A DNA stretch of 36,393 nt, taken from the IMG/VR virus record IMGVR_UViG_2534682108_000013, positions 1 to 36,393 of that record; one strand, given 5' to 3'. The position numbers were made by a program, and so were the translations under genes. Position 1 is the first letter of the stretch. Each line of letters starts with the position of its first letter. This stretch comes from a virus. Taxonomy: Duplodnaviria > Heunggongvirae > Uroviricota > Caudoviricetes. Shown piece after piece: positions 26,800 through 36,393 of the stretch. The notes beneath the pieces were generated by a model. It was given only the letters and a program-made list of their open reading frames with translations. It made no database searches and was not told the DNA's origin.

Positions 26800-28325
26800 G
26801 CGGCTTCCCCTTGTTTCTCTTTACGTTTCGCGAAGGCGATCAGTTTTGATTTGATGAAATTCGTCACTTCAGGTGTGATTTGCTGCGGGGTGTGATGTAA
26901 CCCTCTCGGCCATACACCGAATTTTTGGCGATAGGTATGCGCACACCATCCGTCACTGACAGGGCGTCCCTGTGCTGCGCGGGTGCGCTGATAGAAAAGA
27001 ATCTGAGACCACCAGGATTGTTTCTGCTCTGGGGTGTATTTAACTTCCGCTTTGCTGACCTTGGTCAGTCCACGGGATTTGTCTGTTTCAACGTCTTCCC
27101 CGGCCAGCGGTTTAAAACCACATTTCGGGCAGATATAAATTCCGGCAGGTTTCACGTATTGGCACTGGCTGCACTCTTTCGGCAACTTCTCCGGCTCGTC
27201 GGTCTTGGTAACGCGCTGCGGGGCTTCTTCCATGCCGTCAGACGACGAAGGGAGATAGTCATATTCAATGTCGTCGGGATAACCCAGCTTATTGACCGTG
27301 CCGCTGTGGTCGAAGATGAGACAGTGATCTTTGCCAGGGGCCGCGCGTAATCCTCGCCCAAGCGTCTGAATCCAGCGAATTTCACTTTTAGTCGGTCGGG
27401 CAAAGATGATGCAGCGAACATCACTGTCGAACCCGGCTACCAGTACACCAACGTTGATGATGATTTTGGTAATACCCTGCTCGAAGCGACGGATCGTTAA
27501 CTGACGTTCTTCATGGGGTGTGCTTGCCGTCATGACTTCAACGGTCACCCCGGCGCGGGAAAACTCCATCGTGACGTAGTTCGCATGGGCCACATCAACG
27601 CAGAAACAGATTGTTGGGCGATCCTGCCCGTTCTCCAGCCAGTTTTTTACAATATCGCCAACCAGTTTGGCTTCACTCATAACCTTACTGAGCTGGCCTT
27701 CCTTGTAGTCGCTGCCATACCCAGCAACGTAAGACGTTTCCACCTCAGAGAGATCGGGATGTGACGGCGCGTAAAATTCGTATTTGCTCAGTGCGCCAAT
27801 CGCGATCAGCTCCTTCATCGTTGTTGGCTTAATCAGGCGCTGATAGTAATTGCCCAGGAACTTGGCGAAAGGCGTACCGGAAAGACCGACCACCTTCGTT
27901 TTTGTGTTGCGGGTCAGGTTGTCGATAACCTCCAGCAGCTTTTTGCGCTTCAGGTGGGCTTCGTCAACAATCAGCAGGTCGATGTTGTCCGGGAATTCAC
28001 GGCGAATGAGTGTATCGGCGCTGGCGATCTGAATAAGCGCTGTCGGGTTATATGACGGATGATCACGCCAGACATAACTGATCTCTTCGCCAGGAAGACC
28101 ATATTCCATGAATCGGGTGGCAGTCTGGTCAAGCAGTACCGTATACGGGGCCACAAACATTACGCGCATTTCACGGCTGACAAAGCCATCAGTGATCAGC
28201 GCGGCAATAGCCGTTTTACCAAAACCAACCGGGGCATAGAGCATAAACGAATTATTCTGCTTCCATGCGCCGCGCAGCATGTTGAGTGCGACGATCTGTT
28301 TCTCACGAGGCTGGATGTTAAGCAT
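26796..28325 (-). CDS. Superfamily-2 DEAD/DEAH-box helicase (replication)
   Basis: Walker A APVGFGKT, DEAH box LIVDEAH, C-terminal Cys-rich zinc ribbon. Confidence 0.85.
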   Translation of the reverse strand: MLNIQPREKQIVALNMLRGAWKQNNSFMLYAPVGFGKTAIAALITDGFVSREMRVMFVAPYTVLLDQTATRFMEYGLPGEEISYVWRDHPSYNPTALIQIASADTLIRREFPDNIDLLIVDEAHLKRKKLLEVIDNLTRNTKTKVVGLSGTPFAKFLGNYYQRLIKPTTMKELIAIGALSKYEFYAPSHPDLSEVETSYVAGYGSDYKEGQLSKVMSEAKLVGDIVKNWLENGQDRPTICFCVDVAHANYVTMEFSRAGVTVEVMTASTPHEERQLTIRRFEQGITKIIINVGVLVAGFDSDVRCIIFARPTKSEIRWIQTLGRGLRAAPGKDHCLIFDHSGTVNKLGYPDDIEYDYLPSSSDGMEEAPQRVTKTDEPEKLPKECSQCQYVKPAGIYICPKCGFKPLAGEDVETDKSRGLTKVSKAEVKYTPEQKQSWWSQILFYQRTRAAQGRPVSDGWCAHTYRQKFGVWPRGLHHTPQQITPEVTNFIKSKLIAFAKRKEKQGEAA

Positions 28326-28593
28326 TGACTAGTACCTCCCCGAATGCTTTAGCAACCAGATCGGCAATGACAAACTTCTCGCGCTGACGCTGAACGGACA
28401 ACGTAACCGTTTTGGTGCCGTCTTTACGCATGCGGCCTTTGAGAAAACCGCCGTGAATGTGACGAATAAAATATTCAGAGTTAGCCAGGCGCGGAATGCT
28501 GCGAACACGGCCAAGATTGCTGACTTCATAAGCTTTTGAATAAAGCTCAACTGGAACAGGGGCCCATTTTTCGTTAGCGTCTGAATAAATCAT
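28318..28593 (-). CDS. NUMOD4 motif protein (HNH-associated DNA-binding module)
   Basis: EKWAPVPVELYSKAYEVSNLGRVRS NUMOD4-like motif; AAGGAG RBS before the Met at 28593. Confidence 0.55.
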   Translation of the reverse strand: MIYSDANEKWAPVPVELYSKAYEVSNLGRVRSIPRLANSEYFIRHIHGGFLKGRMRKDGTKTVTLSVQRQREKFVIADLVAKAFGEVLVNA

Positions 28594-28753
28594 TTTATCT
28601 CCTTTTGGATGGCTAAACGTCTGGATTCCCATTCAACGTTTTAACCCCATACAGTGATCTATCTGTTAGATCGATCTCTTCTGGTAAAGCTGTTCCAGCC
28701 CTTCGGGCTAAAACCCAACACCGCCCCCTTTCCCCCAACCCGGTTTCAAAAAT

Positions 28754-29032
28754 TCATACCCTGGGTGGGAGCGAGGTATATCCCATGACCGCTGGGGTAT
28801 ATCTCGTGCAAAACTCTCGCAATCGGCGGTTTGCCGTTCGTCGTGCTGCGTTCTGCTGCCGGAAAGACACCGGTTCTGCATCGAACGCCTCCTGGTACGC
28901 CTGCGCATACGCCATCGCGATTTTTTCCCGCATACCTGCCGGGAGTGTTGCTAACTGCTGTTTAATCCACGGGGCGTCCTCACGAAAAAAAACCGTGGGC
29001 ATAGTCACGTGAAAATATTCGTCCTGATACAT
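28754..29032 (-). CDS. Hypothetical early protein
   Basis: 92-aa ORF with AGGAGG RBS. Confidence 0.45.
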   Translation of the reverse strand: MYQDEYFHVTMPTVFFREDAPWIKQQLATLPAGMREKIAMAYAQAYQEAFDAEPVSFRQQNAARRTANRRLREFCTRYTPAVMGYTSLPPRV

Positions 29033-29073
29033 AAGCCCTCCTGCGTCACGTCTGTGAGCCGGGCGTAGACTGA

Positions 29074-29604
29074 TTAGTCTGGAGGTCTGGAAACCTCATC
29101 AGGGGCACAGAAGACCCGGAATAACAGCGTCAGGTGTTCCTGCCATTTGGTCATAACCTGATAGCTATTCTCTTCAATCTGAGCGCGTTCAGCGGCGTCG
29201 ATAACTCCGTCTGCGGTAGCTTTACGGATATACTGAGAGTGCCTGCCAATCCACTCGATGGATTCCATAAGGCGCTGATTGATGTCGGCGTTATCAACAT
29301 CATCAACATCTGCCAACGGCACAAACAGACCGTTCGAGTTCCGGGCAACAGCATTTGCGATATGGTTTGAACCACCAGCAGCCTGTAAGACCATCGCCCA
29401 TCCCAACGGGAAGATTTGATCACCGGTAGTACGAAGTCGGTTATGTAGTGGATCGGTTGCCGGGGTTACGTCATCAGATTTATATACCCCAAGGATTTCA
29501 GCAGCTTCTTCATAGCCACCAGGTAAATCAGCGATAGTTCTTCTGATAGCAGCCACCAGCCACGCAGGCTGTTTTTCAACTTTCCACTCTGGTTGATTAC
29601 CCAC
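29074..29604 (-). CDS. CII-like regulatory protein (tentative, 186 CII / CP76-like size and position)
   Basis: 176 aa directly downstream of cro in the early operon; family assignment is from memory and weak. Confidence 0.35.
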   Translation of the reverse strand: MGNQPEWKVEKQPAWLVAAIRRTIADLPGGYEEAAEILGVYKSDDVTPATDPLHNRLRTTGDQIFPLGWAMVLQAAGGSNHIANAVARNSNGLFVPLADVDDVDNADINQRLMESIEWIGRHSQYIRKATADGVIDAAERAQIEENSYQVMTKWQEHLTLLFRVFCAPDEVSRPPD

Positions 29605-29677
29605 GACTCACCTCTTAATGCTGTGGTTACTTTCATGCTGCTGTTTTTTTATGATCAAGTTCTGGCCAAATCTTTTC

Positions 29678-29878
29678 CTAATCATCTGGGTGGAGGTTTT
29701 TCCTGCTAACTGAGCCGCCAGAATGCGTTTCGATAGAAACAGATAGGGCAGCTCCCAACTTTTGTTTTTTGCTTATGGCTTTACGCAAGTACTCAAGAGA
29801 GGTTTCGCATCGTGATGCAAACTCTCTCTGTTTTTCGAGCGACAAAGCGTTTAGATAATTTCTTAACGTTTCCATCAC
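29678..29878 (-). CDS. Cro-like HTH repressor
   Basis: 66 aa, divergent from cI across an operator-rich 96-bp region; GGAGG RBS. Confidence 0.6.
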   Translation of the reverse strand: MMETLRNYLNALSLEKQREFASRCETSLEYLRKAISKKQKLGAALSVSIETHSGGSVSRKNLHPDD

Positions 29879-29897
29879 GCCTCCTGTGCCTGGAAAG

Positions 29898-29965
29898 AAA
29901 ATATACCTTTAAGTAAATACAAGTCAATACCCAGGAGTCATTTACCTCAAAGTAAATTTAAGTAA
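29898..29965. promoter_or_regulatory. OR-like operator/promoter region (PR toward cro, PRM-like toward cI)
   Basis: Minus-strand TTGACT-N16-TATATT facing cro; repeated GTAAAT/ATTTAC half-sites including ATTTAC-N6-GTAAAT; 23-bp block nearly identical to 31063..31085. Confidence 0.5.
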
Positions 29966-29974
29966 GATGAAATA

Positions 29975-30685
29975 ATGAAAACTGAAACGCCTGACATCTT
30001 CGAGTTACGACGCCTCAAACTTCAGGAGTTGGTAACTCGCTTTAAGACCCAAAGAGAGTTTGCTGAAAAGGCAGGGCTTGATCCGACTGTTGTTTCTCGG
30101 ATGCTTTACCCTGTTGGTAAACCTAATAAGCGGAATATTGGGGAGCAGGCAGCTCGCCAGATTGAAGATGCTATGAAAATCAGCCGTGGATGGATGGATG
30201 GTCTTGGACCTACCACAAAAATGGATGTTGATGTACCCACTCACAAAGTCGACAATTATCGTGTAGAAGTTCTCGACCTTACTGTGAGTGCTGGTCCTGG
30301 ATGTTTTATGATCTCTGAGTTTGTTGAGGTTCTACACGCCATTGAGTTCACCACCGAGCACGCTCGTTCACTTTTCGGAAATCGTTCTCAGGAAGATGTA
30401 AAAGTGATGACTGTCGATGGTGACAGCATGTGCCCAACTATACAGTCTGGAGACAGGTTGTTTTTTGATGTTTCGGTAAGAAACTTCAAGGTAGATGGTG
30501 TTTATGCGTTCGTATTCGGACAGCACTTCCATGTAAAGCGCTTACAGATGCAGGGTTTGCAGCTTGCAGTTTTATCAGATAACCCTGTGTACAAAGACTG
30601 GTACGTAACTGAAGAAAACCAAGATCAATTGTACATAATGGGGAAAGCATTGCTACATGAATCAATAGCTTACAATAAACTGTAA
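29975..30685 (+). CDS. CI-type repressor (N-terminal HTH, C-terminal S24 LexA-like autopeptidase)
   Basis: C-terminal domain with DGDSM Ser motif and Lys (VKR); divergent from cro. Confidence 0.85.
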   Translation: MKTETPDIFELRRLKLQELVTRFKTQREFAEKAGLDPTVVSRMLYPVGKPNKRNIGEQAARQIEDAMKISRGWMDGLGPTTKMDVDVPTHKVDNYRVEVLDLTVSAGPGCFMISEFVEVLHAIEFTTEHARSLFGNRSQEDVKVMTVDGDSMCPTIQSGDRLFFDVSVRNFKVDGVYAFVFGQHFHVKRLQMQGLQLAVLSDNPVYKDWYVTEENQDQLYIMGKALLHESIAYNKL

Positions 30686-30740
30686 TTTTAGATGTCGGAA
30701 GTTGAAACAGACTGAGCAATTTCTAAAAAACAACATTTAA

Positions 30741-30765
30741 CCCGGCCCCAGCGCCGGGTTTTTAT
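30741..30765 (+). terminator. Rho-independent terminator after cI
   Basis: CCCGGC-CCCAGC-GCCGGG hairpin followed by TTTTTAT. Confidence 0.6.
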
Positions 30766-30968
30766 TGTCCTTTTCTCACCATAGCAGCGGCATCCCGTAA
30801 AACACCTTTGTGGATCACATTACCCACCGCGCGACGCTTAACCTCTAGGCTATCTACAATCGCATCTCGACTTATCACCACACCGTTGATTATCAACTCG
30901 ACAACTGCACCGCCTATTTCGCCAGCGATGAATGCCGCACGGTCTTCTTCCAGCTCATCACGTTCCAT
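30762..30968 (-). CDS. Hypothetical small protein convergent with cI
   Basis: 68 aa from the Met with GAGGG RBS (the ORF track start is 31040); no recognisable family. Confidence 0.3.
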   Translation of the reverse strand: MERDELEEDRAAFIAGEIGGAVVELIINGVVISRDAIVDSLEVKRRAVGNVIHKGVLRDAAAMVRKGQ

Positions 30969-31062
30969 ATCAGGCCCTCTCTGTTGCTTTTCTGAGCATA
31001 TCACGCATCTCCGAAATAAATAAATTCCAATTAAAAGCAATCAATTGCCATGTAAGTAAATA

Positions 31063-31109
31063 AAAATATACCTTTAGGTATTTACACAAAAATTACTCAC
31101 GGGTATATT
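31063..31109 (+). promoter_or_regulatory. OL/PL-like operator and rightward promoter
   Basis: Operator block AAAATATACCTTTAGGTATTTAC (3 mismatches to the OR block) overlapping -35 TTTACA, 17-bp spacer, -10 TATATT. Confidence 0.45.
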
Positions 31110-31175
31110 CAAATCATCATCAGCGAACAAACCGAAACCAATCACCATTGCAAACGGCGTTAGCTGAAGTAATAC

Positions 31176-31189
31176 CGCTCTTTAACAAT
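31176..31189 (+). promoter_or_regulatory. boxA-like antitermination element (CGCTCTTTAACAAT)
   Basis: 13-nt match to the rrn-type boxA consensus GCTCTTTAACAAT as recalled, about 60 nt downstream of the predicted PL-like start. Confidence 0.5.
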
Positions 31190-31787
31190 ATGAACACTTA
31201 CAGCGTCAATGACCTGTTTAGACCCCTACACGTAAACGTGGCGTAGCACCAGGCGCGATCCGGTTGGTGTGAGGTTATCCCCGCGCGAGAGCGAGAACGG
31301 CGTGAGAATGGGCAACACTGGCAGGGAAATGACGCTGATTACTGCTTAGAAGAGTTAGGTTCCCCCCGGTTACCCAGGGGGATGTGTGAGAAATTATGAA
31401 CAGTATTTCTTCACGATTAACATGGTGATGAAAATCAGTGTCGCTGTAACTGGTTCACAATGACTCAGCAGCAATGACATGATTAAGTAATCATATTTAG
31501 TCATCTACGTTTCCACGCCTACCCTTGCGAGTAGTCTGCTGAATGAATTCTCAGCATCCATATGTTCTCATATTCAGAGATATCAAAAAAGCCTTAGGAC
31601 CCTTGGGAGTGCTTTGGGGTGTGATGAATTGTAGCCATTAAAGGTAAGCCGAAGATCAGCACCGGCCACCGCACCACCAAAACATTTCCATAATTTCGAT
31701 GTCCAAAGCATTGGTGAACACTTAGAAATCAGACGAAACACACACATTCATACGGTTACTTTGTGTCAATCATTTCAGGAGGTTATA

Positions 31788-32903
31788 GTGCCATTATCCA
31801 AGCGTTCAGTTGAAGGCAGTCAAATGGCAAATGCACAGTACGAGAAAGGGAAAATCATACTTGAGCACACTAAAACTCAAGTCAAGAAGGCTGGAGAGTG
31901 CATACGAAAAGGAAATGGTGATATCGAAAAATCAATCGAGATTATCCAGCAGTATAGAGCGGCCCATCTGTACCCTTTGATGATTATTAAAAATCTCGTG
32001 TGGAAACATGCGCAAAAAATAAACAAAAACGCTATCATTGCACGTAGATTAAAACGTCTTCCGACCATTATTGATAAGTTACGACGTAAAACACTTGATG
32101 GTAAAACGCCGAATTCTATTGCTGTAACCCGAATGAGCGATATTGGTGGTTGCCGTGTAATTGTCGAGGACAGACAAGAGTTACTTTTATTAGATTCTTC
32201 GTTAGACAAAAGTCGCACCACCCATAAATCTAAGGTCAAGGATTATATAAGAACTCCGAAACCTACCGGCTACCGTGGTATCCATAGAGTTTATAGTTGT
32301 TATGACAAGGATGAATCTCATCAGTGGAAAGGGTTTGATATAGAAGTACAGTTAAGAACTAAACTCCAACATTTATGGGCCACTACAGTTGAAGTGGTGG
32401 ATTTGTGCGAAGGCAGGGCCCTGAAAACTAACCCATTCGAATCAAACCCTTCATGGATTGAGTTTTTCCAGCTAATGAGTGAATTCATTGCTGATGAAGA
32501 AGGATTCATTTTCCTACCTCCTCATAATAAAAACATCATAAAATCAAGACTTTTAAGTCTTAATGATAAACTTAATGCCATCGAAAAGCTCAGGTCATTT
32601 AACCGGTTATTCTCTGATAAAGAGTTAGACCTTTCCAAGAATAAGGGCGGATATGTAATAATCGCATTAAAATCAAATAAAATATTTTACAAGACCTTTA
32701 CAACATCTCAAAAGCACTTAGCTGTAACTGCATATTCCATTGTTGAAAAAGACGATGATGCAAATGGTTTATTTGTTGAGATGGACGACCTGCGAAAATT
32801 ATCTTCTGCCTACCCTAACTATCTAATCGATACGAGATTTTTTATAGATAAGTTTGAGTTGTATACCAATTCAAGTTATTGGGCAAAACCCCGACAGATT
32901 TAA
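31788..32903 (+). CDS. RelA/SpoT-domain nucleotidyltransferase with C-terminal extension (candidate fused toxSAS-type defence protein)
   Basis: Motifs TRMSDIGGCRVIVEDRQELL, KPTGYRGIHRVY, DIEVQLRTKLQHLWA; AGGAGG-5 nt-GTG start (the ORF track uses TTG at 31761); AT-rich; own terminator. Confidence 0.75.
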   Translation: MPLSKRSVEGSQMANAQYEKGKIILEHTKTQVKKAGECIRKGNGDIEKSIEIIQQYRAAHLYPLMIIKNLVWKHAQKINKNAIIARRLKRLPTIIDKLRRKTLDGKTPNSIAVTRMSDIGGCRVIVEDRQELLLLDSSLDKSRTTHKSKVKDYIRTPKPTGYRGIHRVYSCYDKDESHQWKGFDIEVQLRTKLQHLWATTVEVVDLCEGRALKTNPFESNPSWIEFFQLMSEFIADEEGFIFLPPHNKNIIKSRLLSLNDKLNAIEKLRSFNRLFSDKELDLSKNKGGYVIIALKSNKIFYKTFTTSQKHLAVTAYSIVEKDDDANGLFVEMDDLRKLSSAYPNYLIDTRFFIDKFELYTNSSYWAKPRQI

Positions 32904-32916
32904 TCTTTGTATAACT

Positions 32917-32941
32917 GAGGTCGCAATTGCGGCCTTTTTTA
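32917..32941 (+). terminator. Rho-independent terminator after the RelA/SpoT-domain gene
   Basis: GGTCGCAA/TTGCGGCC stem followed by TTTTTTA. Confidence 0.6.
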
Positions 32942-33282
32942 TTAGCCTTATCCTTTGGCGGTTATCTGGTCTTCAACCAACTCACAGGAGGATGAAGATA
33001 ATGTTCTGACATATAACCGCCCTTTTTATTCAATGTGTCCGCTTCCGGTGTCGGCTGGGACTCCCTACCCAGCGCGGGTTCAACTCCTGCCGGATACCTA
33101 ATCATATGGTGACTTATATGACCTTCCGTAACGTTAATTTTTACTACGGCGACCTGATGCGCGTCACTCGTGGTGTGCAGGCTGTTCGTAATCCAAAAAC
33201 AATCGCTAATTTCTGGCGGCGTAGCTGGTTATGCAGGTTACTCACTCAGAAAGGCGATCCTCGTTTATAACTGGAGATAACT

Positions 33283-33642
33283 ATGTCAGAAACAAAGAAC
33301 ACCACACCATTCAGCCAGCAACTGGCTTATATCAATAAAGGCACACTGGATGCTGAACTGACCGAAGCGCTGGCCGAAGTGATTAAAGCAGTCCGCGAAA
33401 CTGGCAAGAAAGGTGCGGTTACGCTGACTCTCAATTGCGCCATGCTGAATACCCGTGACGAAAACACCATGAAGGTCACGCCAAAAGTAACCCGAACCAT
33501 CCCTGAACTGGACCGCGCCGATACCATCATGTTTGCAACCGCCGATGGCGATCTACTGCGTGACGATCCTGCGCAGACACAGCTTGATTTAAAGGTTATC
33601 GAACCTGCACCACAAACAGCACCTATCAAGCTGGCCCAGTAA
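33283..33642 (+). CDS. YfdP-like hypothetical protein
   Basis: 119-aa ORF with GGAG RBS immediately upstream of the YfdQ-like gene; naming from memory of the K-12 CPS-53 gene order. Confidence 0.5.
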   Translation: MSETKNTTPFSQQLAYINKGTLDAELTEALAEVIKAVRETGKKGAVTLTLNCAMLNTRDENTMKVTPKVTRTIPELDRADTIMFATADGDLLRDDPAQTQLDLKVIEPAPQTAPIKLAQ

Positions 33643-33685
33643 TACCCACCAAACAAACCATTCCAATCTGATAAGGAAATATTCA

Positions 33686-34498
33686 ATGTCTCAAATTGAA
33701 GGCTCTGCCGTGCTCGACATTCGTGATCTGGTCTCTGCAACTCTGAAGACTGAGACGGACATTCCGTCAGTTGTTGTACCCGATGGCTTTGAAGTCAAAT
33801 CCCTCGAAAGTCTGCAACTGGCTCCGTCGCGCATTCGTCAGAGCGCCAACCTGATTTCTCCGGGTTCGCTGATCGCTTACATCCAGCGATTCCGTGATGA
33901 ACGTACTGTAGTTTTCGCGGATAAAACTAAAACGCGCATTGTCGCCGTGCTGGATTTCCACCAGAACGCAGACAATCCGAGCTGGGCTGCACATGAAGCT
34001 GTTTATGACTGCCCGTTCTCCGACGAATGGAAATCATGGACTGCCAACGATGGCAGCAAAATGGACCAGATCAACTTCGCTGAATTCTTGGAAAACAATA
34101 TTCAGAATGTTGCGCCGGTTAGTGATTCATACCATGGCCCGTCAGGTACCGAACTGCTCGAAATGGTCCTGGCATTCCAGGAAACTCGCAAATCTGAGTT
34201 TAAGTCTGTTAAACGCCTTTCTGATGGTACCTGCCAGTTCCAGTTCAGCGATGAAAAATCAGGTTCTGGTAATACCAAAATGCCGGAAAAAATCAGCCTG
34301 GCAATTTCTCCATTCCACAACGGCTCTCCTTACCAGGTCGATGCACGTATCCGCTACCGCCTGCGTGATGGTCAGTTGGTCCTCTGGTATGAGCTGATCG
34401 AACCGAAGAAAGTTGTTGAGCACGCATTCCAGGAGATCGTCACCGATATGGAAAGCCAGCTTGGCGAAGACCTGCCTATCTACGAAGGCTCTGTTTAA
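33686..34498 (+). CDS. YfdQ-like protein (DUF2303-type)
   Basis: 270 aa; size and neighbourhood as recalled for E. coli CPS-53 yfdQ. Confidence 0.55.
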   Translation: MSQIEGSAVLDIRDLVSATLKTETDIPSVVVPDGFEVKSLESLQLAPSRIRQSANLISPGSLIAYIQRFRDERTVVFADKTKTRIVAVLDFHQNADNPSWAAHEAVYDCPFSDEWKSWTANDGSKMDQINFAEFLENNIQNVAPVSDSYHGPSGTELLEMVLAFQETRKSEFKSVKRLSDGTCQFQFSDEKSGSGNTKMPEKISLAISPFHNGSPYQVDARIRYRLRDGQLVLWYELIEPKKVVEHAFQEIVTDMESQLGEDLPIYEGSV

Positions 34499-34575
34499 TC
34501 CCACCGTGTGTTGTTTTATGCGCCTGCCCTGCGGGCGCATAGCAAAGCACTCTCCCACTACATGAAGGAGTAACC

Positions 34576-35373
34576 ATGCCCAGTTTAGGCCAGCTCTATA
34601 ATGATAAAGACGCCGGGTTAACTACCCGCAAAACCTACAATGTTCCGCTGGATAAAATTTACGCCGAAGAAGGCTACAACGTTCGTGAACTCAATCGGGC
34701 GCATGTTGAAGAATTCCGCGATGCGTTTATTGCCGGTGAATATATCCCGCCGCTGGCCGTAGAAGTTACCGAGCGTGGTGTGAAGGTTATCGACGGCCAT
34801 CACCGCTATCATGGTGCGCTGGCTGCTATCGAAATGGGCCACGACATTGTGCGCCTTGAATGCAAAGATTTCGTCGGTAGTGAAGCCGACAAGATCGCCT
34901 TCATGGTAACCAGCTCGCAAGGATTAGCGCTTACTCCTCTTGAACGTGGCGCGGCATATCATCGCCTTCAGAATCAGGGCTGGAGTCCTTCAGAAATAGC
35001 GGCAAAAGTTAAACGTTCTGAGTCCGATATTCTGCAACACCTTCAACTTCACGAATGTACTCCATATATCAAAAAACTCGTTCGTGATGGTTCCATGAAT
35101 TATGCCATCGCCATCGGTATCTCCCGCGAGCATGGTGTGTATGCCGATCGCGAAGCTTCACGTCTGATGAAGAAAGCTGAAGCCGCAGGTAAGAAAAAAA
35201 TAACCAAGAGCATCGCCAATCCTCAGTTTAATGCCGGAAAAGCAAGAAAGTTTCTTGAGCTTATTTCTTCATGTGCTGAGGACTCTGGTGAAGTGCTGAC
35301 CATTGAAGTGCCACCAGCAATGCAGGCTGAAATTATCTCTATTCTTCGGGAATTTCGTCATGAAGCAGTCTGA
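34576..35373 (+). CDS. ParB-like nuclease domain protein
   Basis: VIDGHHRYHGALAA ParB/Srx-fold signature. Confidence 0.7.
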   Translation: MPSLGQLYNDKDAGLTTRKTYNVPLDKIYAEEGYNVRELNRAHVEEFRDAFIAGEYIPPLAVEVTERGVKVIDGHHRYHGALAAIEMGHDIVRLECKDFVGSEADKIAFMVTSSQGLALTPLERGAAYHRLQNQGWSPSEIAAKVKRSESDILQHLQLHECTPYIKKLVRDGSMNYAIAIGISREHGVYADREASRLMKKAEAAGKKKITKSIANPQFNAGKARKFLELISSCAEDSGEVLTIEVPPAMQAEIISILREFRHEAV

Positions 35374-35569
35374 TTTACCAAGATGCCCAACGTGCGGAAA
35401 TATGCCCGAATACTCGCTGAAACCCAATCATCTTGGCTGGGTTTGGGGTGGTATCAGATGCCCGTATGACCATTACAGCGTGAAGCCCAACGGACCGGCC
35501 AGTAACCGTGCAAAGGCAGAAGAAACTCTGGCTCCGCAGTGGATTGCGTTGGTAGAAAAAGCAAGATAA
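35360..35569 (+). CDS. Small zinc-ribbon protein (possibly Lar-family restriction alleviation)
   Basis: MKQSDLPRCPTCG... with a second RCPYDH Cys/His pair; overlaps the ParB-like stop; Lar assignment is weak. Confidence 0.35.
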   Translation: MKQSDLPRCPTCGNMPEYSLKPNHLGWVWGGIRCPYDHYSVKPNGPASNRAKAEETLAPQWIALVEKAR

Positions 35570-35577
35570 GAGGTTTT

Positions 35578-36393
35578 ATGATGAGCAAATCAAGCATGGA
35601 ATATTACTTCGAATTCCCCGCCTCTCGCGGGTTACAGGGGAATACGCTTATTCTTCTGATGAACGTTCCAGGGCGAACCTTATCCCGTGTACTGGCATCC
35701 GATAATTACGGACACACCCTCGATCGCTCTCAGCGCGAAATAAACAAGTCACGCGTCAAAAAGTTTTACGATTATCTGGTTACAGCAGCAGAAAATAAAG
35801 AGCCATTCATCATCCCACCACTGGTTGGAAACTGCGCTTCACATGTGGAATTCGAAGAATTCGGCAACACAAATGTCGGTGTTGTTAGGTTTCCTATGGA
35901 TGCCGAAATTAAACTTTTCGACGGTCAGCACCGCGCTGCGGGTATATCTCAGTTCTGCAGAGATAATGATGCAATCCTGCATGTACCGTTGATGATGACT
36001 CTGCTACTTCCACTGAAGACACGTCAGCAATTCTTCTCCGATATTAATAACAACGTCTCCAAGCCATCAGCCGCAATCAATATGGCTTATAACGGCAGGG
36101 ATAAAATTGCACAAGAAATGGTGTCATTCCTGTCTACTCACCCTGTGTTTTCGGAAATCACAGACTTCGAACACAACGTAGTTCCGGCCAAAAGTGATCT
36201 GTGGGTCAGCTTTAAGGCCATGAGCGATGCAACCTCAAAATTCTCCGGAAATGGGGATGACGCCATTGCAACAGGTGATATTTACGATATCTGGGAAGCA
36301 TGGCTCAAGTTTACCGCTATAGATGGCATCCGGCATGGTGTTACCCCATCCGAATACAAACGGGATTACATTCAGTTTGTAGTGGCACACTGA
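35578..36393 (+). CDS. DGQHR-domain protein (DndB-like, ParB/Srx superfamily)
   Basis: KLFDGQHRAAGI motif; AAGAGG RBS before ATGATG at 35578. Confidence 0.7.
   Translation: MMSKSSMEYYFEFPASRGLQGNTLILLMNVPGRTLSRVLASDNYGHTLDRSQREINKSRVKKFYDYLVTAAENKEPFIIPPLVGNCASHVEFEEFGNTNVGVVRFPMDAEIKLFDGQHRAAGISQFCRDNDAILHVPLMMTLLLPLKTRQQFFSDINNNVSKPSAAINMAYNGRDKIAQEMVSFLSTHPVFSEITDFEHNVVPAKSDLWVSFKAMSDATSKFSGNGDDAIATGDIYDIWEAWLKFTAIDGIRHGVTPSEYKRDYIQFVVAH

Follow-up and report, generated by a model that had tools for sequence, protein, structure and literature searches.

The window considered here is a stretch of 36,393 nucleotides (nt) of tailed-phage DNA (IMG/VR record IMGVR_UViG_2534682108_000013) that derives from a lambdoid prophage; its positions 29600-34600, a 5-kb stretch, were compared with the chromosome of E. 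coli O157:H16 Res13-Lact-PEA12-26 (NZ_CP062876.1) and agree with it at 100% identity. Beyond the cI-like repressor gene and a pL-like promoter, the plus strand carries an uninterrupted frame (31761-32903) that contains a gene for a protein with a RelA/SpoT domain, starting at 31788 or 31824 and ending at 32903. The PGAP call listed in RefSeq takes the first of these starts (GTG 31788) and gives a 'RelA/SpoT domain-containing protein' of 371 amino acids (aa; WP_106379026.1). An initial annotation, made from the sequence alone, had proposed a single-chain toxic small alarmone synthetase (toxSAS) of the CapRel type, carried as an AT-rich cassette in a lambdoid prophage. This identification is borne out by Pfam, PADLOC, PDB entry 7ZTB, Foldseek and the published relative CapRel^Kp. 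The low GC content it had pointed to is likewise evident, at 0.371 (0.353 at third codon positions) for the open reading frame (ORF); the window as a whole has 0.491 and the flanking genes 0.49-0.50. The features of the locus are collected in Table 1, with protein residues numbered from ATG 31824.

Table 1. Features of the window from the cro-like gene to the terminator behind the CapRel gene.
Feature	Positions	Strand	Basis or detail
cro-like gene	29678-29878	-	ORF list
cI-like LexA-family repressor	29975-30685	+	Peptidase_S24 E=5e-17; PGAP 'LexA family transcriptional regulator'
Bidirectional intrinsic terminator after cI (predicted)	30739-30760	both	Stem 8 bp, 6 GC pairs
68-aa ORF, phrog_3975 (function unknown), convergent with cI	30762-30968	-	PGAP, PHROG
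pL-like promoter TTTACA-17-TATATT (31081-31109), overlapped by operator-like repeat	31063-31109	+	Promoter scan 10/12
phi80-type nutL-like block, ~180 nt	31173-31355	+	Begins with rrn-type boxA CGCTCTTTAACAA (31176-31188), exact match
Variable cassette between two blocks conserved in related prophages	31356-32953	+	GC 0.388
Lineage-specific non-coding leader, 385 nt	31356-31740	+	ORF list; no ORF >36 aa
Candidate gene-proximal promoter TTGTGT-17-TATAGT, overlapping the AGGAGG/GTG block	31761-31789	+	Weak consensus, 8/12
Alternative GTG start (PGAP) and 12 in-frame codons: N-terminal extension or untranslated leader	31788-31823	+	AGGAGG upstream
CapRel-family fused toxSAS gene, 359 aa + stop	31824-32903	+	Favoured ATG; Pfam, PADLOC, PHROG, 7ZTB, Foldseek, CapRel^Kp
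toxSYNTH (RelA/SpoT nucleotidyltransferase) domain, residues 1-~200	31824-32423	+	Pfam, model, residue mapping
Helical linker/anchor region, residues ~201-276	32424-32651	+	Helices 209-226, 233-250 and 252-264 in model; aligns with SJ46 alpha7-alpha9
Pseudo-zinc-finger domain (pseudo-ZFD), sensor/antitoxin core, residues 277-319	32652-32780	+	Beta-beta-alpha-beta: strands 277-283 and 286-292, helix 294-308, strand 313-319
YXXY autoinhibition motif A329-Y330-P331-N332-Y333	32808-32822	+	Equivalent to SJ46 A351, Y352, Y355
Intrinsic terminator after CapRel gene (predicted)	32917-32946	+	Stem 8 bp (5 GC pairs) at 32917-32936, then TTTTTATT

The assignment to CapRel rests on matches along the whole protein. 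The three RelA/SpoT signatures reported initially are present in the translation, and the Pfam profile RelA_SpoT (PF04607) scores far beyond chance (E=4.1e-17; 62.9 bits versus a cut-off of 27). The candidate defence family PDC-S33 of PADLOC matches at full length (E=1.1e-92; residues 13-348 against positions 6-342 of the 349-position profile), as does phrog_4773, a family of 'unknown function' (E=8e-124); the name PDC-S33 was not mentioned in the literature text searched. Among PDB sequences, phmmer found the crystallised CapRel^SJ46 of Salmonella phage SJ46 (7ZTB/9ERV; E=2e-65), with residues 3-340 of the 359 aligned to positions 3-362 of the chain. Because this match spans nearly the entire length, the homology extends beyond the synthetase half and the protein can be called CapRel. 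The fold agrees. In an AlphaFold model built on 64 homologues (alignment A3; 36-88% identity), with a mean predicted local distance difference test score (pLDDT) of 82 and a predicted template-modelling score (pTM) of 0.74, the best PDB matches by Foldseek were 7ZTB_A (TM-score 0.81/0.85, root-mean-square deviation 3.0 A, 356 columns, 37% identity) and 9ERV_A.

Names already attached to the gene and its relatives would fit another reading, in which the product is a non-toxic small alarmone synthetase (SAS) of the RelQ/RelP type that makes (p)ppGpp and reprograms host physiology as a form of lysogenic conversion, with no defence toxin involved. The source annotation goes no further than the RelA/SpoT domain, some homologues are labelled 'GTP pyrophosphokinase YwaC', and the synthetase core does align with ordinary SAS enzymes of the PDB (RelP/RelQ) at E=4e-11 to 1e-5. 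However, the best of these phmmer alignments spans only residues 60-188, and in Foldseek the SAS structures cover the N-terminal half of the model alone (TM-score on the query 0.34-0.40; 15-25% identity). NCBIfam models, including the equivalogs for SAS and RelA, fall far under their cut-offs (NF053588, 37.7 bits versus 320; TIGR00691, 25 versus 499; NF008124, 15.2 versus 728), and by these scores the protein is neither a housekeeping SAS (RelQ/YjbM, RelP/YwaC) nor a long RelA/SpoT enzyme. As the C-terminal antitoxin region, YXXY motif included, is specific to fused CapRel, a plain alarmone synthetase is the least probable of the alternatives weighed here, and a very remote one.

Within the CapRel protein, the N-terminal ~200 residues are a RelA/SpoT-type nucleotidyltransferase, toxSYNTH, in which the ATP/adenine-coordinating residues R75 and R111 and the G-loop residue Y150 are intact. 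Model confidence is high here, with pLDDT mostly 88-96 over residues 11-190 and 82 for residues 71-80. In pairwise alignment, R75 (32046-48), R111 (32154-56) and Y150 (32271-73) correspond to R79, R116 and Y155 of CapRel^SJ46, for which adenine coordination by the two arginines and the place of the tyrosine in the G-loop have been described (PMC9712102), and A73 is identical to A77. All three catalytic residues, together with A329, Y330, P331 and N332, are invariant in the 64 homologues. Conservation of the catalytic residues on alignment to CapRel, on which the initial proposal depended, is thereby observed. A pseudogene or remnant was considered and rejected, since the ORF is not truncated against any homologue and the catalytic residues are all intact.

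The remainder of the protein had been described at first as a ~170-aa extension without recognisable motif, possibly a new sensor domain. This description does not survive comparison, as the full-length match to 7ZTB and the conserved AYPNY identify it as the known CapRel anchor, pseudo-ZFD and YXXY region. CapRel^SJ46 consists of toxSYNTH, anchors, a pseudo-ZFD and a helical extension at the C-terminus that is hinged by YXXY, a motif whose function has been demonstrated (PMC9712102). From alignment and model, the C-terminal ~160 residues of the window protein are the same series of anchor helices, pseudo-ZFD and a terminal pair of helices joined by the YXXY hinge. The beta-beta-alpha-beta unit agrees with the published topology of the pseudo-ZFD (PMC9712102). 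The two terminal helices of the model are joined by a low-confidence hinge (residues 325-334), and the YXXY motif has a pLDDT below 50, as expected for a hinge; Y333 is kept in at least 90% of the 64 homologues. At the autoinhibitory interface, A329 is identical to its SJ46 counterpart, V338 and L339 of SJ46 are replaced conservatively by L316 and F317, and A341 is replaced by a different residue, E319. Therefore, the docking interface is not identical to that of SJ46, although in a second alignment of 17 sequences (A1) the clade typically has E or Q there.

Two translation starts can be considered. GTG 31788 is preceded by AGGAGG (31777-82) at a distance of 5 nt, and ATG 31824 by GAAGG (31812-16). 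The methionine encoded by ATG 31824 is invariant in A1 (M22) and kept in at least 90% of A3 (M1), many homologues start at this position, and its counterpart in the crystallised CapRel^SJ46 is Met1. Between GTG and ATG, the 33 nt change rapidly and mostly non-synonymously, without insertions or deletions; 12 of them differ from the Citrobacter relative. ATG 31824 is favoured as the start because its methionine is conserved and aligned with Met1 of SJ46 and because the GTG-ATG interval changes in this way; a 12-residue extension from GTG 31788 is less likely. A 19-nt block, TCAGGAGGTTATAGTGCCA, with the AGGAGG-N5-GTG arrangement (31777-31790), is invariant in six relatives; lying 36 nt before the conserved methionine, AGGAGG-N5-GTG may be a second translation start or, through its TATAGT, the -10 region of a promoter belonging to the gene. 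Of the ribosome-binding site and terminator that had been credited to the gene, the terminator and the AGGAGG 5 nt before GTG exist, whereas the preferred start is the ATG behind GAAGG.

The absence of a separate antitoxin gene, also proposed initially, is upheld. No ORF longer than 36 aa lies on the plus strand between 31040 and 31760, and a small ORF downstream (33118-33270) falls mostly inside 32954-33161, a sequence also present in a relative without the CapRel gene. No candidate antitoxin ORF is linked to the CapRel gene and no neighbouring ORF co-varies with it.

The closest experimentally studied relative is CapRel^Kp of Klebsiella pneumoniae, which protects E. coli weakly against phage SECphi18; protection was also shown for CapRel^Ebc (PMC9712102). 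In that study, expression of the CapRel ORFs relied on 100-200 bp of their native upstream sequence, in a pBR322 backbone that had no promoter, and autoinhibition, capsid sensing and tRNA pyrophosphorylation were established for CapRel^SJ46 (PMC9712102). The CapRel^Kp sequence was taken from the synthetic DNA in Supplementary Table 4 of PMC9712102, a machine-read text with six indel (frameshift) artefacts. Because of these artefacts, a frameshift-aware alignment was used and the resulting identity to the window protein, at least 83% (297/359), is a lower bound; it amounts to 87% over residues 1-265 and 71% over residues 266-359. Plain tblastn against the same text gave 61-66% in mis-framed high-scoring pairs, a misleading figure that the alignment replaces. 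Given the lower identity of the C-terminal part, trigger specificity may differ between the two proteins. Database homologues of 83-88% identity occur in Klebsiella, Citrobacter, Enterobacter and E. coli.

The uneven divergence recurs at the level of substitution rates. As synonymous sites are saturated in most pairs, only the non-synonymous rate (dN) is reported; among four close relatives it is 0.04-0.05 in toxSYNTH, 0.10-0.27 in the pseudo-ZFD and 0.07-0.10 overall. These values indicate strong purifying selection overall, with the pseudo-ZFD as the fastest-evolving part, changing 2-5 times faster. Faster change in the sensor has been reported for the CapRel family as a whole (PMC9712102).

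By homology to CapRel^SJ46 and CapRel^Kp, it is very probable that the gene encodes a CapRel-family fused toxin-antitoxin that would serve prophage and host alike as an abortive-infection defence. In the uninfected cell, the C-terminal pseudo-ZFD region would block the active site, with the turn of the YXXY motif inserted between R75 and R111. When a sensitive phage infects, one of its freshly synthesised proteins would bind the pseudo-ZFD/anchor surface and keep the enzyme open. The open enzyme would then move pyrophosphate from ATP to the tRNA 3' CCA end, so that translation and phage production stop and the infection is aborted. In CapRel^SJ46 the triggers are the major capsid protein or Gp54; the trigger of the window copy is probably a different one, because its C-terminal region is only 26% identical to that of SJ46.

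The last step could in principle differ while the fused architecture stays the same. A passage of PMC11782079 describes both chemistries among toxSAS enzymes, and the substrate is not readable from sequence data; a FaRel- or Tas1-like product would make toxic (pp)pApp and deplete ATP with no modification of tRNA. However, the homology and the fold match are to the CapRel subfamily over the full length, the structural entry being named 'Salmonella tRNA pyrophosphokinase CapRel', and CapRel^Kp shares at least 83% identity with the protein. No structure of FaRel or Tas1 appeared among the PDB sequence matches or fold matches. (pp)pApp synthesis is therefore improbable, and tRNA pyrophosphorylation remains the preferred activity of the CapRel protein.

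The position of the gene was at first equated with that of the lambda rex genes, downstream of cI. The layout contradicts this, as a terminator follows cI, a 68-aa minus-strand ORF comes next, and the CapRel gene lies beyond both pL and boxA. The terminator (30739-30760) is predicted to separate cI transcription from the region downstream. The true rex-equivalent interval, from cI to pL, is the one that holds the 68-aa phrog_3975 ORF; in the Citrobacter freundii relative, the gene directly after cI is a 293-aa minus-strand ORF (L005:3072-3953) with weak BRCT-domain hits in Pfam. This suggests that the cI-pL interval is a second variable cargo site.

The pL-like promoter occupies a position corresponding to pL/OL of phi80. 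Overlapping it, a 24-nt repeat (31063-86) is 88% identical to 29898-921 between cro and cI; it is the longest direct repeat in 28000-33400 and is read as a shared operator. The nutL-like block that follows (31173-31355) has 88% identity to a stretch of phi80 that carries the annotated nutL boxA and core and lies after pL/OL and before N. Identity of the block is 74-93% in the related loci L003, L004, L005, L009 and L010. More widely, identities of 87-93% are seen in phi80, over 100 Stx-converting phages, Klebsiella phages and most sister prophages, and of 74% in the Citrobacter sister prophage; the block is far more conserved than the flanking genes. A put-like structured RNA within it was considered and no claim is made, the fold being not distinctive (z=-1.26). 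Rfam searches at the gathering threshold over the whole window and at E<=1 over 30900-33400 returned only mir-2558 and sroH, far below their thresholds.

The CapRel gene comes after the pL-like promoter and the phi80-type nutL block and thus opens the early-left operon as its first ORF, at a distance of ~715 nt from the pL -10 element and at the place where phi80 has N. In phi80 the order is a rex-slot gene, 40A, before pL and N after nutL. In the window, no plus-strand ORF of at least 40 aa that could encode an N antiterminator lies between nutL and the CapRel gene. Neither phi80 N nor a Klebsiella N_peptide protein had a tblastn match in the window (best E=0.5); the test is a weak one, and N diverges rapidly. 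No plus-strand terminator is predicted between the pL/nutL-like block and the CapRel gene.

The CapRel gene sits in a cassette whose content varies between prophages. E. coli 100416 (L004) keeps both flanks (31173-31355 and 32954-33161) and has between them ~700 bp with an unrelated 117-aa ORF. This cargo (L004:4522-4875) encodes an acidic protein with no match in Pfam or PHROG, and it may be another defence or counter-defence gene. CapRel itself occupies the same slot in E. coli MB07152, in a Citrobacter freundii locus and in the loci that encode Klebsiella pneumoniae protein P0002, and these loci then carry the same yfdP, DUF2303 and parB-like genes. In the window this downstream trio (33283-35373) comprises a yfdP-like gene (119 aa), a DUF2303/YfdQ gene (270 aa) and a ParB-like helix-turn-helix gene (265 aa), and it comes after the slot in all sister prophages. 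A tRNA-like appearance at ~33075-33100 is unsupported, as ARAGORN gave no tRNA or tmRNA.

The window's own arrangement is found in two sequencing-run assemblies as well. More distant homologues vary in their surroundings: a 61%-identical homologue of Klebsiella aerogenes follows N and kilR in a pL operon, one of Serratia ficaria lies upstream of recT/yqaJ, and one of Enterobacter cloacae belongs to a non-phage island. All close relatives examined carry the CapRel gene in a prophage. The initial annotation had correctly noted a PL-like promoter and boxA 0.7 kb upstream; it had also called this placement unusual. Because close relatives in E. coli, Klebsiella and Citrobacter use the same slot, placement downstream of pL is recurrent rather than unusual.

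The first part of the cassette, the leader (31356-31740), is peculiar to the lineage. It has no match in the phage collection, and among 5,426 complete E. coli genomes most of it is matched only by the source genome, with two others matching a 70-nt stretch at 81%. The leader starts with a G/C hairpin (~31362-31383).

Two routes of expression can be proposed. The candidate gene-proximal promoter has its TTGT and TATAGT elements conserved in six relatives, among them the native upstream DNA from which CapRel^Kp was expressed on a plasmid without promoter. This weak promoter would give basal expression in the lysogen. The cI-repressed, boxA-bearing pL transcript would add strong co-transcription on induction or on infection of a new host, because the CapRel gene is the first ORF of that transcript.

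Should the second route be the only one, the gene would be silent in the lysogen, transcribed from pL after loss of the repressor, and active in the phage's own lytic or establishment phase, where it would exclude co-infecting phages or serve as a selfish addiction module. In keeping with this, the gene is the first ORF behind an operator-flanked pL-like promoter and a block resembling boxA/nutL, and no plus-strand terminator is predicted in the interval; no strong independent promoter was found upstream of the gene, and the leader differs from the tested CapRel^Kp construct. However, the 63-83 bp proximal region with TTGTGN-17-TATAGT is common to CapRel^Kp, whose native upstream DNA sufficed for activity on a vector with no promoter, other prophage abortive-infection genes such as P22 sieB are expressed from the prophage, and the CapRel gene has its own terminator. 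Silence in the lysogen is accordingly given a small chance, comparable to that of the (pp)pApp chemistry, and a defence gene with basal expression in the lysogen is preferred. A broader proposal is doubtful, if less so than either of these: in an apparently N-less lambdoid prophage family of Escherichia, Klebsiella and Citrobacter, the position after pL/nutL may be a swap-in cargo slot whose occupant, here CapRel, would be expressed both basally in the lysogen and by an antiterminated pL burst, so that defence would also operate in the phage's own lytic or establishment phase, and the diverged pseudo-ZFD would sense a trigger other than capsid or Gp54.

Several observations weigh against a working CapRel defence at this locus. 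E319 stands at the position of SJ46 A341, an interface residue at which the substitution A341K causes constitutive activity (PMC9712102), and the AlphaFold model kept resembles the open crystal state, not the closed autoinhibited one. No promoter passing the scan lies within 300 bp upstream of the CapRel gene, the one proposed reaching only 8/12, and the farther-upstream region of CapRel^Kp is replaced here by the lineage-specific leader. Protection by CapRel^Kp was only weak and directed against one of 12 phages (PMC9712102). Finally, the source prophage has IS3 and IS66 insertions further down the pL operon. A gene for a DndB-like protein with a DGQHR domain (35539-36393 and beyond; L002:11982-14019) is cut by IS3, with IS66 further on; two assemblies that match otherwise, L015 and L016, have it intact (358 aa). 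Because IS3 truncates a gene that is intact there, the prophage in the E. coli O157:H16 strain is judged to be in decay.

The family, the C-terminal fold, the mechanism and the CapRel^Kp subclade are already published, and the locus adds no new architecture; it reveals no new mechanism and opens no long-standing question, and its value is one of annotation and comparison. The RefSeq 'RelA/SpoT domain-containing protein', the PHROGs family of unknown function and PADLOC PDC-S33 can all three be named as CapRel. As an allele of the CapRel^Kp clade that occurs naturally in E. coli and has a sensor ~29% different, the gene should be useful for mapping pseudo-ZFD variation against trigger specificity. 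The first-ORF slot behind pL/nutL, which holds other cargo in sister prophages, is a cassette site worth mining for defence genes. What interest remains lies in the diverged sensor domain and in this pL/nutL-proximal slot of an apparently N-less lambdoid family.

Among known systems, CapRel^SJ46 is the best-characterised counterpart. It shares the two-part architecture and the fold (TM-score 0.81/0.85), identical residues at its catalytic R79, R116 and Y155 and at A351, Y352 and Y355, carriage by a prophage and the lack of a separate antitoxin. Aligned pairwise with the protein from the phage record, the window protein is 41% identical over its whole length, with 46% for the toxin part and 26% for the C-terminal 100 residues. 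In contrast to the window protein, CapRel^SJ46 has 14 additional residues, most of them a pseudo-ZFD insertion, and its gene adjoins lxc and a maturation-control gene in a P1-like phage-plasmid (Punavirus), whereas the window gene lies in a lambdoid pL operon.

CapRel^Kp is closer. It belongs to the same length class (357-359 aa) and shares the invariant proximal upstream sequence, from TCAGGAGGTTATAGTGCCA to the ATG, including AGGAGG-GTG and GAAGG-ATG; upstream of it, the DNA matches the corresponding DNA of L003, a relative with CapRel in the same prophage family and slot. However, beyond about -83 its DNA is unrelated to the window, and it comes from Klebsiella whereas the window copy is from E. 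coli O157:H16. The bicistronic pairs PhRel-ATphRel and FaRel2 belong to the same toxSAS toxin superfamily, and CapRel's C-terminal region is homologous to the stand-alone antitoxin ATphRel (PMC9712102). Unlike the single polypeptide of the window, these systems are made up of two genes.

Like lambda rexAB and the sieB genes of lambda and P22, the window CapRel would provide a prophage abortive-infection function beside the immunity region, although it has no sequence or mechanistic relationship to either. P22 sieB is expressed from the prophage and stops macromolecular synthesis midway through the lytic cycle of a superinfecting phage. In lambda, rex occupies the interval from cI to pL and shares the cI transcript, whereas in the window a terminator follows cI and the CapRel gene is found beyond pL/nutL. 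In lambda and P22, sieB is a gene of the pL operon, situated just past N, with a promoter of its own. Because of this location and promoter, sieB is a better positional analogue of the CapRel gene than rexAB.

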